5,474 bases of DNA, taken from IMG/VR virus record IMGVR_UViG_2684622670_000024, positions 1-5,474 of that record; one strand, 5' to 3'. The notes under the pieces are model-generated. The model did no database searches and was not told the origin of the DNA. It saw nothing but the letters and a program-made list of their open reading frames with translations. The translations under genes were made by a program, and so were the position numbers. This stretch comes from a virus (lineage: Duplodnaviria; Heunggongvirae; Uroviricota; Caudoviricetes). Below are positions 758-5,474 of the stretch, in pieces; position 1 is the stretch's first letter; each line of letters opens with the position of its first letter.

Positions 758-776
758 CGAAAATATCAACCAGTTA
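758..776 (+). promoter_or_regulatory. IHF core-consensus match with upstream A-tract (CGAAAATATCAACCAGTTA), site C
   Basis: TATCAACCAGTTA is an exact fit; it overlaps the 8-bp palindrome TTTCGAAA (755-762) and the stop codon of the 96-aa ORF. Confidence 0.5.
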
Positions 777-1064
777 CCGCCGTAACCGTTCCGGTTTCTT
801 CCAGTGGTAAGTATTTTTCGCGCTCTCCCTCCGTTGCTGAGAACGGCGACGACATGCCAGCAACTCGAGAACTCTGGTTCGTATGTTGCGCATATCCACG
901 CCGTTAAGCTCGATACCGTCACGGCGCATCACCTCAGCCACTACACGCGCGTAATTTTCGGCTATCACGCTGTCCGGCTGCGTGGCCTGTTCGTCATGCT
1001 GCTGGCTGATTCCGGTAACGCGGCGGATTATTTTTAGTAGTTCGGTTTCGCTCATTCTCGTCAT
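774..1064 (-). CDS. Hypothetical protein, translationally coupled to terL; function unknown
   Basis: 96 aa (MTRMSETELLKIIRRVTGISQQHDEQ...RRRSQQRRESAKNTYHWKKPERLRR). ATG at 1062-1064 overlaps the TerL stop (ATGA). Same strand as the operon, helical-looking body with a strongly basic C-terminal tail. I do not recognise a family. Its stop codon (774-776) coincides with the TTA of an IHF-consensus site. Confidence 0.5.
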   Translation of the reverse strand: MTRMSETELLKIIRRVTGISQQHDEQATQPDSVIAENYARVVAEVMRRDGIELNGVDMRNIRTRVLELLACRRRSQQRRESAKNTYHWKKPERLRR

Positions 1065-2722
1065 ACCCCATCAAACGCCGCAAGCCGCTCTTTGTGGCTG
1101 TCGCTTATATCAAATGCAAATTCCTCATGCTCTGCCTGGAATGTGCCAAACGCCATCAGCGCCGCAACGCTCGGATCTATCTTGTTGGATGATTTTTTCT
1201 TGTTCGGCTTGATATTGGCGTTCGCGTCACTCTGCATCACAACATTACTCATTGACCAGGCCAGCACCGGATCACCACGATGCACAATCACCTTCCGGTT
1301 AACAAAAACTTCGAACGATTTCGCCGCCGGACTGAAACGAAGGTATGTTTGCGGGAACGGCTCCACCTCAAATCCTGCGCCCTGTAGCTGCGTCCTCAGG
1401 TGCGTGGCGTTCCATGTATCGAAGCCCACCAGTCTGATATTGAAATTCTCTGCATCCGCCATGATGTCATCGCGGATACGGTCATAATCAATGCAGTCAC
1501 CCGGTGTTGTGCGTATCCAGCCCGCCTTTGCCCACTGGCGATAGATGGCGCGGTTTTTATTGGCGGGGTTCTGTAGCTGAAATTCCGGCAGATAGTGACG
1601 GGAAACCAGCATAATCTTTTTACCGACCGGAAAGGCATAGCACACGCTGGAAATATCGCTGGTTGATGATAAGTCCAGCCCCGCGTAGCACTCCTGCCCG
1701 TATAAATCCGCCTCCGCGAACGTTCCGGCGCACTCCGCCCATGCACCGTTACCCATCCACGGCGTAGCCCCCTGACACCAGATATTGAATCGCTTGGTGA
1801 GCATTTCCACCCACTGCGACGGAATACCCCGCGCTTTCTGGATGGTTGAGGCCAGTTTTTCACGATCGACGGAAACATCGATATTGGGATTCGCCTTTAT
1901 CCACATCGCCGGATCGTCAACCTCGCTTTCATCATCCAGCTCGTAAATAAGCACGAACATGGATTCGTTCACCTCTTCACCATCCAGTATCTGGCAGCAA
2001 TAGTCGTAGTGTTGTTTACAGGCTGAAACAACGTTGCTCCCCGATGTGGTGATGGCAAATAATAACCCCTCCGGACGCGCCCCCATTCCCAGTTCAAGCG
2101 CGGAATAAACCCCGTTGTCAGGGTGCAGGTGATATTCATCCACAATGGCGAGACTCGGGTTTGTCCCCTCAATGGTTGCCGCTTTTGCTGCCAGTGGCTT
2201 TAACAGGCTGTTGGTTTTCGGGTGTATCACCTTGTGCGCCTGAATATTTACCCGCTTTCGTAACGGTCGGGATAAAAGGCACATCTGACGCGCATCATCA
2301 AACACGATCCGCGCCTGATCACGACTCACGGCGGCGGTGTAAATATCCTGCTGCCCGTGTTCCATAACCAGAAACCAGTTAGCCAGGATAGCGGCGACCG
2401 TGGATTTGGCATTTTTTCGCGGTACTTCAATGAATGCGCTGGTGTATTTGCGCCGTCCGGTGGCCTTAACCTTAAAGCCCAGGATGCAGGCAAAGGCGAA
2501 CTGCTGCCACGGCTCCAGCTCAATGGGGCTACCGCGCATTGCGCCTTTTACGTGCGGACACACCCTGGAAAAGGCAATAAACCGCTCCACGACCTCCGGA
2601 TCGAACGTGTAAAGGGGGTTTTCAAGGTCAGAAAAATACCGTTTAACGGCCTGTTTCAGTCGTTTACAGGCCGTAATTTTGCCGTTTTTTACGCCTTCTG
2701 CGTACTCATGCCAGGCGGTCAA
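1061..2722 (-). CDS. terL: Terminase large subunit (ATPase + nuclease)
   Basis: 553 aa. Deviant Walker A (EVPRKNAKST), Walker B (LAIVDEYH, hydrophobic run + DE), and a C-terminal RNase-H-like nuclease region with acidic residues in GLDLSSTSD, VGFDTWNA and KIDPSVAALMA. The only in-frame start candidate after the upstream stop (TAA 2765-2767) is TTG at 2720-2722, preceded by a strong SD (GAGGAAGAGGA) and lying 17 nt inside the 3' end of terS. Stop TGA 1061-1063 overlaps the ATG of the next ORF. Confidence 0.9.
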   Translation of the reverse strand: MTAWHEYAEGVKNGKITACKRLKQAVKRYFSDLENPLYTFDPEVVERFIAFSRVCPHVKGAMRGSPIELEPWQQFAFACILGFKVKATGRRKYTSAFIEVPRKNAKSTVAAILANWFLVMEHGQQDIYTAAVSRDQARIVFDDARQMCLLSRPLRKRVNIQAHKVIHPKTNSLLKPLAAKAATIEGTNPSLAIVDEYHLHPDNGVYSALELGMGARPEGLLFAITTSGSNVVSACKQHYDYCCQILDGEEVNESMFVLIYELDDESEVDDPAMWIKANPNIDVSVDREKLASTIQKARGIPSQWVEMLTKRFNIWCQGATPWMGNGAWAECAGTFAEADLYGQECYAGLDLSSTSDISSVCYAFPVGKKIMLVSRHYLPEFQLQNPANKNRAIYRQWAKAGWIRTTPGDCIDYDRIRDDIMADAENFNIRLVGFDTWNATHLRTQLQGAGFEVEPFPQTYLRFSPAAKSFEVFVNRKVIVHRGDPVLAWSMSNVVMQSDANANIKPNKKKSSNKIDPSVAALMAFGTFQAEHEEFAFDISDSHKERLAAFDGV

Positions 2723-3062
2723 GCTCGTCCTCTTCCTCTGTTTCCGGTGGATTTCTGCGGCGGCTTACCGGGTCAAAACCCAGCAAAGAAGCCATTTTGA
2801 TCATTATTCTTTCTGCGTCAGCCTTTGCGCTCAGGGCGGGGTTTCTGCTCTCGCTGCCCTGACTGTTAACAATGCTGAACCCGCGCGTCGCAAGGTCTTC
2901 GACGGCTTTGCGGTATATAGAGTAGTTAACGCAATACAGTTCCAGATTGCTCCAGTCGGCGGGGGTAAGGTCTTCCCGCCCGGAAAGCTGGCGCGATTTT
3001 TCCTTCCACTGCCTGACCGCGATTTCATCCAGGTAAGCGGGGGCTTTTGGTGGTCTTGCCAT
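2706..3062 (-). CDS. terS: Terminase small subunit, P27-family-like (start placed at the internal ATG 3060-3062; the six-frame ORF extends to an ATG at 3201-3203)
   Basis: From the internal Met the product is 118 aa beginning MARPPKAPAYLDEIAVRQWKE..., which matches the M-x-(G)RPPK N-terminus and size typical of P27-family small terminases. The 47-aa upstream extension (MFSQSLVRPSEGVGEVFRTKPPLPDTDRLLKFLCTGIFLKIIGRKKN) is not protein-like to my eye, but the ATG at 3201-3203 has a better SD (GAGGT, 6-nt spacing) than the ATG at 3060-3062. Acidic C-terminal tail ...PETEEEDELDRLA. Stop TGA at 2706-2708. Confidence 0.7.
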   Translation of the reverse strand: MARPPKAPAYLDEIAVRQWKEKSRQLSGREDLTPADWSNLELYCVNYSIYRKAVEDLATRGFSIVNSQGSESRNPALSAKADAERIMIKMASLLGFDPVSRRRNPPETEEEDELDRLA

Positions 3063-3350
3063 GTTCTTTTTTCGCCCAATTATTTTCAAAAAAATTCCCG
3101 TGCACAAAAATTTGAGGAGGCGGTCGGTGTCCGGCAGGGGCGGTTTCGTCCTGAAAACCTCCCCCACCCCCTCTGACGGCCTCACCAGCGATTGCGAAAA
3201 CATTCCATGACCTCGCGGTCACGGTCGGTTAATCGCTTCGCTGTGGTGCGTTCTGTGCGCTCTGTCCTGTTGGCTTTGTGCCCTGTCTCCTGTGTCTTCC
3301 ATAAGTCACGCTGCCTTATCAGTCCACGTATCAGCCTGTTTTGCTCCTGT
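3063..3350 (-). promoter_or_regulatory. Structured HNH-terS intergenic region; candidate cos / terminase-recognition region
   Basis: About 288 bp non-coding if terS starts at 3062. Contains a CTGT-rich block (eight CTGT in 3241-3350; ACAG(G) on the coding strand), an imperfect dyad GACC-TCGC-GGTC (3209-3220) flanked by inverted AGCGATT (3187-3193) / AATCGCT (3231-3237), and a C5-A-C5 tract (3161-3171). In HK97-like phages cos lies between the HNH gene and terS. Confidence 0.4.
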
Positions 3351-3791
3351 TCAGTCATCATCGCCATACATCCAGTCGTTACGATGTGCCGCCCGTTCTT
3401 CCTGCTCGCGATACATGCCCGCCTTACGGTTCGCTTTCGTGGCTGGATCTTCCCGTGTCGTCTTACGGTTGTGGCACGTCTGGCACAATGCCTGGTGGTT
3501 CCACTCAGGCCAGAAGAGAACATCACCGCCGCCATTGATGGGAATGATGTGATCCACCACAAGAGCTGGCGTATAAATACCCTTAGCCAGACAACGCACG
3601 CATAACGGATTTTTTTTCAGGTACAGGGCGCGGTATTTGTCCCACAGTCGGGAATACCCACGTGCGCGGCGGTGTCCCCGTCTGGCATCCTCTGCACGCC
3701 ATGCAGCCCGCCTGTGCTCTTCACACTTGCCGGACTTCACGCGCTTATTACAGCCCGGCTCAGTGCATCGCCTTAATGGTTGCCATGGCAT
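3351..3791 (-). CDS. HNH endonuclease, terminase-associated type
   Basis: 146 aa; N-terminal Cys cluster (RCTEPGCNKRV...GKCEEH) and a classic HNH core (VVDHIIPINGGGD ... WNHQALCQTCHNRKT). It sits immediately upstream of the small terminase, the arrangement known for HNH proteins that assist cos-cleaving terminases in HK97-like phages. Possible SD GGGGGTG about 7 nt upstream of the ATG. Confidence 0.88.
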   Translation of the reverse strand: MPWQPLRRCTEPGCNKRVKSGKCEEHRRAAWRAEDARRGHRRARGYSRLWDKYRALYLKKNPLCVRCLAKGIYTPALVVDHIIPINGGGDVLFWPEWNHQALCQTCHNRKTTREDPATKANRKAGMYREQEERAAHRNDWMYGDDD

Positions 3792-4087
3792 CAGTACACC
3801 CCCACATCACGATAAACCGACCAGAGCGCGGAAATCGTCAGGGGAATTTCTTTTGTATCGGTATCGCCAAGCGTTGTCCGGTACTCGTACAGTTGCGAGA
3901 TATACATCAGGCAACCAATTTTTATTGCAGGGGTAAATTCCAGGCCGTCATCAAAACGCCTGCCAATATGCTTCTGGCATACCTCCAGCGCCGCGCTTAT
4001 GTATGCCTGAATCAGTGTGTCTTCTGTGTTACCATCTATGCGGCAGTGAAGTTTGGCCTCTTCCAGGGTTATTTTTTCTGCTGTCAT
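3791..4087 (-). CDS. Phage gp6-like head-tail connector protein
   Basis: 98 aa; N-terminal ...ITLEEAKLHCRIDGNTEDTLIQAYISAALEVCQKHIGR... fits the gp6-like connector pattern (L-E-x-A-K-x-H-x-R-I-D, then D/E-D-x-L-I-x-x-Y-I-x-A-A). ATG 4085-4087 overlaps the upstream stop; stop TGA 3791-3793 shares one base with the HNH ATG (3789-3791; TGATG junction on the coding strand). Confidence 0.78.
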   Translation of the reverse strand: MTAEKITLEEAKLHCRIDGNTEDTLIQAYISAALEVCQKHIGRRFDDGLEFTPAIKIGCLMYISQLYEYRTTLGDTDTKEIPLTISALWSVYRDVGVY

Positions 4088-4422
4088 TTTTCTGTACCCA
4101 CCTTTGCCAGAATTTCCAGCCGGGTTCTTTTCGCATCAGGTAAGGGGATCCCGATGATATTAAGCGTGCTCCCGGCAAAAGCGCCGGTAAGCACTTTCAG
4201 GCGACTGGCGGCGGATATGTCGCCACGATAGCGAACCCATACCCGAATCGTTGCAGGTGCGGTTTCTGCGCCTGCGGTCAGCAATTCCCGTCCGCTGATC
4301 CCCTTGACCTCTGCCCAGATGGTTTCCCCTTCCGTCCATATCTGCTGGATCGCACCTGACGGCAGGCGCTGTGTGGTAAATGTCATAATCGTCACCCGGT
4401 CCCGCATCTTTCCGGCTATCAT
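4084..4422 (-). CDS. Phage head-closure / head-tail adaptor protein (head-tail joining family)
   Basis: 112 aa; N-terminal MxxGKMRDRVTI... is the signature opening of head-tail joining/head-closure proteins as I recall them. ATG at 4420-4422 overlaps the portal stop (ATGA arrangement); its own stop TGA at 4084-4086 overlaps the next ATG (4085-4087). Confidence 0.75.
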   Translation of the reverse strand: MIAGKMRDRVTIMTFTTQRLPSGAIQQIWTEGETIWAEVKGISGRELLTAGAETAPATIRVWVRYRGDISAASRLKVLTGAFAGSTLNIIGIPLPDAKRTRLEILAKVGTEK

Positions 4423-5474
4423 TCGTCACCGCCCTTACTGTTCTTGCTGATTGTCACTTCCTGCTTCCATGCCTGGCTGAACTCGTCACCACCTTCACGC
4501 GGCGGCATCCCCTCACGCTCACGGGCTTCGTTCGGATTCATGATCCCGTTCTTAATCCCTTTCTCATACGTGGCGTAACGTTCGGTAGGGGTGGCGCGCA
4601 GTAAATCGGCTGAATCAAACTCAACCAGATAACGGGTACCAGGTACGGGAGAAGCCATCAGCAAAGCAGCCTTGATTTGCTGTTCGAAGTTCGCCAGCCA
4701 CGGGCGCATTGTCATGGTCAGAAACGCGCGGCTTGCCTCACTGAAATTGCTGTAGGTGCTGTTGCTGTATTCCTGAAGAAAAATCGGCGACACGTTGAAC
4801 ATACGAGCAATGTCTTCAATGGAGAAGCGACGGGAGGCCAGCCATTCCGCATCCTGGTTACTCATCCCCAGTTGCTTGTAATCCATGCCCCCTTCAAGGA
4901 TTGGCGTTTTTCCGGCATTTTTCGCCCCCTTATAGCGTTCCAGAGCATCTAATGCCTGTTTACCTTTCACGCCGTCCAGCCATTCGCCTGACGTGATAAT
5001 CCCTGCCGCCATCATGCCATCTTTCATAATGCTGGCTCCGTGACGCTGTTGAGCAAGGCCAAGCCCAAGTGCCTCACGGCAAATCGTGACAGGGGAGCGC
5101 CCCAGAAAGCCATCATCCGAGGCATAGCGGAGATGCAGAACTTCTTCCTGTAAATACGTGCGCACCGTTCCTGTATAGGGTTCGGTGATGGTATAGCGGT
5201 ATTTGTGTGCGCCTGTGCGTTCCGGTACAACACAACCCGGTGCATAAGGATGAAGTGATTTTGGCTGACCGTCCCGCCCCCACTCAATAACCGCATAGGC
5301 GTTACCGTTCAGCAGGCAGTGACGCATCATTGTGCGTTTAAACTGGTAAGGTGTCTGGCATGAATTTGGCTGCTCATTCAGCAGAATATCTACCGGGTGA
5401 CTGTCCAGCCATTCCCGCGCCTCCCTGCCCTTGTCATTACGTACCAGATACAGATAACACGGCATCGTGGCCAC
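4419..5474 (-). CDS. Phage portal protein (HK97-family-like), 5'-partial; the ORF runs off the right edge of the window, so the true N-terminus is not in view
   Basis: 351 aa visible. Central and C-terminal segments (e.g. ...DAEWLASRRFSIEDIARMFNVSPIFLQEYSNSTYSNFSEASRAFLTMTMRPWLANFEQQI... and ...RYLVEFDSADLLRATPTERYATYEKGIKNGIMNPNEAREREGMPP...) match what I recall of the conserved core and C-terminal region of HK97-type portal proteins. Stop TGA at 4419-4421 overlaps the next gene's ATG (4420-4422). The first codon in the window is GTG, which is not the real start. Confidence 0.82.
   Translation of the reverse strand: MATMPCYLYLVRNDKGREAREWLDSHPVDILLNEQPNSCQTPYQFKRTMMRHCLLNGNAYAVIEWGRDGQPKSLHPYAPGCVVPERTGAHKYRYTITEPYTGTVRTYLQEEVLHLRYASDDGFLGRSPVTICREALGLGLAQQRHGASIMKDGMMAAGIITSGEWLDGVKGKQALDALERYKGAKNAGKTPILEGGMDYKQLGMSNQDAEWLASRRFSIEDIARMFNVSPIFLQEYSNSTYSNFSEASRAFLTMTMRPWLANFEQQIKAALLMASPVPGTRYLVEFDSADLLRATPTERYATYEKGIKNGIMNPNEAREREGMPPREGGDEFSQAWKQEVTISKNSKGGDE

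Follow-up and report, generated by a model that had tools for sequence, protein, structure and literature searches.

The DNA analysed here, a stretch of 5,474 nt referred to below as the window, is the packaging end of an Escherichia coli capsid-forming PICI (cf-PICI), a phage satellite. All of its sizeable genes lie on the minus strand. In coding order, they specify a portal protein (5474..4419, cut off by the window edge), a head-closure protein (4422..4084), a gp6-like connector (4087..3791), an HNH endonuclease (3351..3791), the small and large terminase subunits, TerS (2706..3062) and TerL (1061..2722), and, after terL, a 96-aa ORF (1064..774). The HNH protein (146 aa; Pfam HNH, E = 9e-10; PHROG 144) is a packaging-associated nuclease whose top match among solved structures is the packaging HNH of phage GVE2 (5H0M, E = 5e-15). 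TerS (118 aa) belongs to the P27/Terminase_4 family (PF05119, E = 4e-23) and starts at an ATG at position 3062, PGAP calling the gene as a 357-nt CDS. It is 85% identical to the TerS of KpCIDSM30104 and 36% identical to that of phage SfV (E = 7e-21); no sequence similarity to HK97 TerS (gp1) is detectable. TerL (553 aa) is an HK97-type large terminase with Pfam TerL_ATPase and TerL_nuclease domains. Its sole match among solved structures is the HK97 large terminase, gp2 (6Z6D, E = 8e-43), which it matches over its full length (residues 46-541).

The same DNA was found in 1,538 complete E. coli genomes. In NZ_CP016546, a copy 98% identical to the window forms part of a 15-kb island (about 14.8 kb) located inside yifB/comM and carrying genes for an integrase, regulators, a RepA helicase, SSB, capsid, protease, portal, connectors, HNH, TerS and TerL. 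Between the two yifB halves, the annotation lists neither tail nor lysis genes. Since this architecture fits the published definition of cf-PICIs, the window element was classed as a member of this group. Both the island architecture and the packaging module are as in the cf-PICIs EcCIEDL933, KpCIDSM30104 and EcCIGN02175, and the O157:H7 (EcCIEDL933-type) copy matches the region between the HNH and terS genes at about 84% identity. For the relatives EcCIEDL933 and KpCIDSM30104, it has been demonstrated that a helper phage induces the element and that transfer depends on helper tails only. For comparative purposes, 71 related loci were gathered from Klebsiella, Citrobacter, Enterobacter, Serratia, Erwinia, Xenorhabdus, Photorhabdus, Aeromonas, Gilliamella, Haemophilus and other genera. 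The HNH gene adjoins terS directly on its upstream side in 68 of them, the remaining three being short or truncated contigs.

A small gene overlapping the end of the HNH gene

The 288 bases separating the HNH gene from terS (3063-3350) had been described in a first-pass annotation as a structured, non-coding gap of about 290 bp. This description does not hold: 169 of these bases (3182-3350) belong to a small conserved gene (3182..3367, minus strand) that overlaps the HNH stop codon, and just 119 nt (3063-3181) are intergenic. The gene encodes a 61-aa protein (MAMMTEQEQNRLIRGLIRQRDLW...KRLTDRDREVMECFRNRW; full translation of 3367..3182, MAMMTEQEQNRLIRGLIRQRDLWKTQETGHKANRTERTERTTAKRLTDRDREVMECFRNRW) and is a PGAP-annotated CDS in a copy 100% identical to the window over 3000-3420. 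The protein gives a full-length match to PHROG 3173 (E = 1.3e-28), residues 4-60 aligning with positions 1-57 of the 57-position profile. PHROG 3173 is a family of small phage proteins without assigned function. A Pfam search gave no match for the protein and neither did tblastn against phage records, where the protein is too short and divergent. In a set of 15 orthologues, the N- and C-termini are kept, conforming to (M)TEQE..L..GL..R(D/E)..(F/W) and KR(M/L)..R(D/E)R(D/E)..E(C/A)FRNR, respectively, and are separated by a variable basic linker. The conserved ends are basic and helix-like. Insertions and deletions among the 15 sequences are all multiples of three, change is highest at third codon positions (0.53 versus 0.37 and 0.32 at the other two) and the median dN/dS is 0.37. 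The PGAP call, the PHROG 3173 match, the existence of orthologues, the dN/dS value and the in-frame indels together establish that the gene is real and under purifying selection.

Most intervals between HNH and terS belong to one of two classes, of 100-147 nt and of 262-338 nt, and a few are intermediate or longer. In Enterobacterales loci, the long intervals carry an ORF of 49-61 aa overlapping the HNH stop codon, and short-gap elements are without the small gene. Where present, the gene always lies between the HNH gene and the putative cos site described below; it is translationally coupled to HNH. The first-pass annotation had allowed that most of the segment might be coding, by virtue of terS translation beginning at position 3203. 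This was half borne out, the coding function belonging to a separate gene. The 3203 start itself was ruled out, as alignments with the TerS proteins of relatives begin with residue 1, at the ATG at 3062, and PGAP agrees; in relatives, an in-frame stop two codons before the terS ATG closes the upstream frame.

The intergenic region and its likeness to phage cos sites

The region 3063-3181 matches the gap of the short-interval class in both length and sequence and is kept in every locus with an intact HNH-terS interval. On the coding strand, the family consensus reads, on the HNH side, GGGGTGGGGG - (T)TTCA(A/G)GAC(A/G)AA - followed by about 20 variable nt and, on the terS side, GGAACCGCC(C)NCCTCC(T/C)(C/A)AATTTTTACGCACGG(C/T)(A/G)-(A)TTTTTTTGAAAATAAA - followed by about 20 nt and the ATG. 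Four parts can be recognized in the window, all read on the minus strand. A G-rich block, GGGGGTGGGGG (3161..3171), is the complement of the C5-A-C5 tract listed in the first-pass annotation and lies about 45 nt from the predicted cut, towards HNH; in a set of 49 distinct cf-PICI sequences, conservation of its columns ranges from 0.82 to 1.00. Directly after it comes TTTCAGGACGAA (3145..3156; consensus ..A.GACAAA), in which columns 3146-3152 are mostly 0.92-1.00 conserved, with 3151 at 0.65. A C-rich block follows, containing the predicted 10-nt cohesive end, CGACCGCCTC (3117..3126). Lastly, on what would be the first-packaged side of the cut, CTCAAATTTTT then GTGCACGGGAATTTTTTTGAAAA (3083..3116) make up a predicted cosB-like TerS recognition site. 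Nowhere in the region is conservation higher, T7 and AATTTTT being essentially invariant (0.96-1.00 for the T7 run, 3088-3094).

Mean pairwise identity among the 49 distinct sequences is 85% in the core (3083-3127), compared to 80% for terS overall and 59% for terS third codon positions; the sample is dominated by Xenorhabdus loci and the contrast between coding and non-coding DNA, being drawn from the same sequences, is an internal control only. Conservation is best 20-65 nt upstream from the terS ATG and lowest (64%) in the 20 nt nearest the ribosome-binding site. The core is retained in elements from Pasteurellaceae and Orbaceae whose TerS is just 62-77% identical, and a motif scan found it in at least 120 IMG/VR contigs, mostly of 14-17 kb. 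As the core is better conserved than terS synonymous sites, from Enterobacteriaceae to Pasteurellaceae, selection must act on the DNA itself: the non-coding core is under strong purifying selection at the DNA level.

The comparison was then extended to phages with records that begin at a cos end: their HNH-to-terS regions were set against those of the islands, using MAFFT for HK97, SfV and ST64B and direct reading for phi644-2. HK97, SfV and ST64B align collinearly with the island sequences and the phi644-2 layout is alike. SfV reads ...GGGGAGGGGCGGGTCAAATC...GACGTCT | TCCGGACTGCCCGCCCCATCGTTTTTTTATACCCGCGAAAAATGAAA..., ST64B being nearly identical; HK97 reads ...GGGCAGGGGGGGGGATCAAATC...ATGACCGCCGCCAAA | GTTTGAATTTAACGCTAACCCGATTTTTTTAG...; phi644-2 reads ...GGGGAGGGGGGTGAAAAAGTC...GGGACCGCCCGCTTC | GTCAAATTTTCACGCCCGCGAAAAATGAAA... 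Run-off sequencing of virion DNA has identified a 10-nt cohesive end, TGCCCGCCCC, in SfI, a close relative of SfV (PMC3636060). This 10-mer, present in SfV and ST64B as well, aligns to CGACCGCCTC at 3117-3126, and the final 10 nt of the records for HK97 and phi644-2 align to the same position, at most 1 nt off. The SfV GenBank record begins 7 nt upstream from the SfI-mapped 10-mer, indicating that the ends of deposited records are not always exact termini. Thus, at the sequence level, 3063-3181 is collinear with phage cos sites having mapped ends. The comparison with HK97-family cos sites, suggested in the first-pass annotation, therefore upheld its proposal of a cos site between HNH and terS, the site being confined to the terS-proximal 119 nt, where homology to phage cos sites coincides with DNA-level conservation. 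The cut is predicted at about 3117-3126, give or take 1-2 nt.

For 3' cos packaging, HK97 serves as the reference phage (PMC5557969). Its TerS binds a minimal site from +15 to +29 (CTAACCCGATTTTTT), in which the A/T tract is essential, and its HNH protein, gp74, stimulates cutting (PMC11331095, PMC9410871). Segment 3083..3116 of the window aligns with HK97 +1 to +30, and the T7 run starts 23 nt from the predicted cut in the island, as against +24 in HK97. By this comparison, we infer that the overhang is 3' and that TerS contacts the DNA at about 3088-3105; since the window TerS has no detectable similarity to that of HK97, transfer of the HK97 footprint is based on the DNA alignment alone. 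The G-rich block also has counterparts in HK97 (GGGCAGGGGGGGGGATCAAATC), SfV (GGGGAGGGGCGGGTCAAATC) and phi644-2 (GGGGAGGGGGGTGAAAAAGTC); the pattern G4-5TG5 then TTTCA(A/G)GAC is common to HK97, SfV/ST64B, phi644-2 and all cf-PICIs. The HK97 studies assign the block no role (PMC11331095, PMC9410871).

A close likeness is to the HNH-dependent temperate phages SfV, SfI, ST64B and Burkholderia phi644-2, which share with the window element the gene order HNH, cos, terS, terL, homologous TerS proteins of the P27 family and a common layout of the site: G-rich block, TCAAA, a spacer of about 25 nt, C-rich cohesive-end block, (C)TCRAATTTT, GC-rich decamer and A/T run. These phages have genomes of 37-49 kb whereas the window belongs to a 15-kb satellite; moreover, the window TerS is about 45 residues shorter than SfV TerS at the N-terminus, the predicted cohesive end (CGACCGCCTC) differs from that of SfI (TGCCCGCCCC) and the A/T run is T7 then GAAAAT instead of A5TGAAAT. 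With HK97, the element has in common a homologous TerL, an HNH gene beside cos and collinear cos DNA, including the TerS site (opposite T7) and the upstream G-run. HK97 differs in that its HNH gene lies about 310 nt from the cut and a PHROG 3173-type gene is absent. With an HNH gene beside terS and terL, an HK97-type TerL, a P27-family TerS and collinear DNA, the site is a clear member of the known class of HNH-dependent, HK97/SfV-type 3' cos sites.

Some evidence on physical ends comes from KpCIDSM30104. Particles present in a lysate of Klebsiella pneumoniae DSM 30104 yielded, through Nextera XT libraries and SPAdes assembly, the sequence of "phage vB_KppS-Ant" (LR881103.1; reads in project PRJEB40148), which agrees with the host chromosome at over 99% (PMC8006926) and is the cf-PICI KpCIDSM30104 of later studies. 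The record is linear and unit-length; it ends in ...GGGGTGGGGGAGGTTTTCAGGAC and starts with ACGAAAAGGAAAAC...ATG(terS). Relative to the chromosomal copy, exactly 69 nt are absent, from -91 to -23 with respect to the terS ATG, and this hole spans the C block and the T7 site, including the predicted cut. Tagmentation libraries cover true ends poorly, so a unit-length molecule with its cut in the C block would be expected to leave such a hole. The hole brackets the cut to 69 nt, no finer, and assembly trouble in G/C- and T-run sequence could have contributed to it. The packaged DNA of KpCIDSM30104 forms concatemers, which its authors credit to cohesive ends. Scans of IMG/VR, based on terS and on the cos-core motif, gave no contig shown to end at the predicted cut among the matches listed. 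The papers on cf-PICIs that were consulted contain no mapped cos site or physical ends, nor any mention of the small gene between hnh and terS.

Considered as a whole, the data are best explained if the interval comprises a small gene coupled to HNH (3182-3367) and an HNH-dependent cos site of the HK97/SfV type (3063-3181), a reading to which we give a probability of roughly 0.78.

Alternative readings of the interval

The first-pass annotation looked for terminase recognition elements elsewhere in the interval. In its reading, the CTGT/ACAG repeats and dyads in 3187-3350 would be cosB-like repeats and a cosN-like dyad. All of the motifs that it listed exist: eight CTGT in 3241-3350, the dyad GACCTCGCGGTC at 3209-3220, mutually inverted copies of AGCGATT (3187-3193) and AATCGCT (3231-3237), and the C5-A-C5 tract, CCCCCACCCCC, at 3161-3171. 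The CTGT clustering is statistically real within the window, eight being the maximum of any 110-nt segment (mean 0.69) and a value reached in 0 of 20,000 shuffles. The block also holds an imperfect 17-nt direct repeat with a spacing of 23 nt. The dyad makes a hairpin that was caught by a terminator scan as well; this being the lone terminator-like hairpin in the gap, and made of DREV codons, a terminator was rejected. Apart from the C5-A-C5 tract, which falls in the conserved region, the motifs map to codons of the gene under purifying selection: the dyad to DREV, AGCGATT to NRW, AATCGCT to KRL and the CTGT block to the linker stretch EQEQ...TERTTA, part of which is a 7-codon insertion found only in the window element and in a Shigella flexneri locus (L047). 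Orthologues do not keep the dyad and the CTGT richness at the DNA level (in KpCIDSM30104, GACCGGGAGTTGC replaces the dyad) and more than 35 relatives, with TerS proteins about 79-85% identical and gaps of 100-147 nt, are without the whole motif-bearing segment. Being codons, unconserved in orthologues and absent from short-gap relatives, the CTGT block, the GACC dyad and the AGCGATT/AATCGCT pair are coding by-products and not conserved DNA signals. A short genuine gene in a seemingly intergenic gap gave rise to regulatory-looking motifs, likely a mis-annotation trap that is now corrected.

The same reading drew on a 10-nt identity to the neighbourhood of lambda cosN. The identity is genuine (GACCTCGCGG, lambda bases 8-17) but at chance level: lambda 1-40 shares a 10-mer with 23% of shuffled windows, and the window contains a further, unrelated lambda match of 11 nt. 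Since equal matches arise in shuffled windows, the likeness is coincidental, and the link to lambda cosN was rejected, the 10-mer sitting in coding DNA besides. Beyond this 10-mer, the site proposed here would follow the general logic of lambda cos: binding takes place on the side packaged first, the cut is staggered and the side packaged last may carry a termination element. Lambda differs in its unrelated terminase (Nu1/A), its 12-nt 5' overhang and the absence of an HNH partner. The window terminases are of the Terminase_4 and HK97 TerL types, which does not place the site in the lambda class. Overall, we regard recognition elements in 3187-3350 as very improbable. Still less credit can be given to headful packaging with the conserved region serving as a pac site, a reading that nothing specific favours. 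Against it stand the HNH-dependent, HK97-type TerL and the P27-family TerS, the report of cohesive-end concatemers in the close relative KpCIDSM30104 and the assembly of particle DNA into a unit-length linear contig with fixed ends. A third possibility is that the main task of the conserved 119 nt is to control terS-terL at the level of transcription or translation, through a promoter, 5' UTR or RNA element, cos lying elsewhere. The region does lie directly upstream from terS, takes in the ribosome-binding region and, as a single strand, folds slightly better than its shuffled versions (z = -1.9, a value too weak to favour a hairpin between the G and C blocks). However, this fold is weak, conservation peaks 20-65 nt before the ATG rather than near the ribosome-binding site, the same blocks flank mapped genome ends in three phage lineages and the particle-derived contig breaks precisely in this region. 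Scanning the gap revealed no sigma-70-like promoter on the coding strand, no tRNA and no Rfam family at gathering score (one match had a noise-level E-value). We therefore consider a primarily regulatory role improbable, if somewhat less so than the readings above. Finally, where the gap is long, the cos machinery might have been enlarged by the small gene or its DNA, for instance by an accessory protein that binds cos or by a longer right-end signal. The gene's invariable position between HNH and cos, its translational coupling to HNH and the conserved basic, helix-like ends of its product speak for this, as does the finding that deleting "hypothetical gene 1792" from the EcCIEDL933 packaging module, which may be either the small gene or the ORF after terL, strongly cuts transfer. 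Short-gap elements, however, manage without the gene, and neither PHROG 3173, a family of no known function, nor Pfam offers any support. Such dual use is unlikely in our estimation, although it is the alternative that we would discount the least.

A packaging model and its implications

Returning to the interpretation of 3063-3181 as an HNH-dependent cos site, the following sequence of events can be proposed. The ring formed by the island TerS would bind the GC-then-T7 tract at about 3088-3105 on concatemeric island DNA. Within the C-rich block (about 3117-3126), TerL and HNH would then nick the two strands at staggered positions some 10 nt from each other, producing 10-nt 3' cohesive ends. 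Packaging would start with terS and terL, take in the HNH gene and the small gene last and halt at the next cos. There, the G-rich block at 3161-3171 would belong to the side packaged last, a position that, speculatively, hints at a role in termination or nuclease docking. A bolder version of this idea, in which the G block is a second functional element of cos (cosQ-like, or a docking site for HNH) and the PHROG 3173 protein a packaging accessory, possibly gene 1792, can be entertained only tentatively. If true, the PHROG 3173 protein might help the satellite terminase discriminate between its own cos and the cos of an HK97-like helper.

This discrimination is central to the biology of the elements. 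cf-PICIs package only their own DNA, in their own small capsids, and this exclusivity must lie in cos and in the TerS/TerL/HNH proteins. The 119-nt interval provides testable targets, namely the predicted cut, the predicted TerS footprint and the G block, for studying how satellite packaging is kept separate from that of HK97-like helpers. If it proves sufficient by itself, the interval could also serve as a compact signal with which to engineer DNA for packaging. That the site is almost unchanged across islands from Escherichia, Klebsiella, Xenorhabdus, Aeromonas, Gilliamella and Haemophilus fits with the cross-genus spread reported for these satellites.

The terS start region and cos variants in related loci

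The region preceding the terS start codon on the minus strand (window 3063-3080) departs from the pattern found in related elements. Its ribosome-binding segment, TTGGGCGAAAAAAGAAC-ATG, differs from the family consensus ACAAGGAA..A.A..ATG, and the in-frame stop present upstream of terS in relatives is absent here. Lack of this stop leaves a spurious 165-aa terS reading frame open back to position 3203.

Several of the loci compared carry rearrangements in or around the cos core, the conserved part of the HNH-terS intergenic region. Two are from Xenorhabdus hominickii, each with its terS ATG at 3001. In one (L040), the G-rich block lying on the HNH side of the predicted cut (window 3161-3171) is enlarged to five tandem GGGGTA units, GGGGTAGGGGTAGGGGTAGGGGTAGGGGTATC, approximately 100-130 nt upstream of the ATG. 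In the other (L072), a 16-nt deletion approximately 55 nt upstream of the ATG causes the loss of TCAATTTTTACGCACG. The deletion takes part of the predicted TerS site as well as cut-proximal sequence, and the locus is possibly incompetent for packaging. In the Symbiopectobacterium loci (L052/L053, 2471-3001), HNH and the cos core are separated by an inserted ORF of about 140 aa, the gap measuring 529 nt; in the Rodentibacter locus (L060), the distance from cos core to terS exceeds the usual one by about 100 nt.

Database records of related elements

One related locus (L002) corresponds to GenBank LR881103.1, entitled "Escherichia phage vB_KppS-Ant"; the accompanying publication (PMC8006926) treats it as a filamentous ssDNA prophage. 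This record is the capsid-forming PICI (cf-PICI) KpCIDSM30104; 69 nt are missing from it at the cos core. The gene following terL is annotated there as a tape-measure protein, a label that is doubtful as the island has no tail genes. A 10-nt cohesive end has been mapped in SfI, a close relative of the HNH-dependent phage SfV, and the SfV record (NC_003444; L155/L156) begins 7 nt upstream of that sequence. Thus, the ends of deposited cos-phage records are not always exact termini.

From terL to the island end

Immediately after terL, on the minus strand, lies a 96-aa ORF (774-1064) with a full-length match (E = 7e-54) to PHROG 1561, a family annotated as of unknown function. The non-coding DNA downstream from these two genes, close to the island end, contains a unit of about 45 nt in four dispersed copies (423-777; start-to-start spacing 140, 116 and 54 nt). 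Each copy consists of a short hairpin (e.g., CCTCAAATCGAGG or TTCGCCGCTGGCGAA) followed by TTYCSGAAAATATCAAC.GGTTA, and the repeats gave neither an Rfam nor a tRNA match. Situated between copies is a perfect 9+9 palindrome, ACTACGAAA/ATTTCGTAGT (631-649), which could form a terminator-like or protein-binding hairpin. Positions 1-431 have no match in the closest genome (H4) and are found in others (H5). This segment looks like a variable portion of the island end, a reported site of accessory or immunity genes in cf-PICIs.
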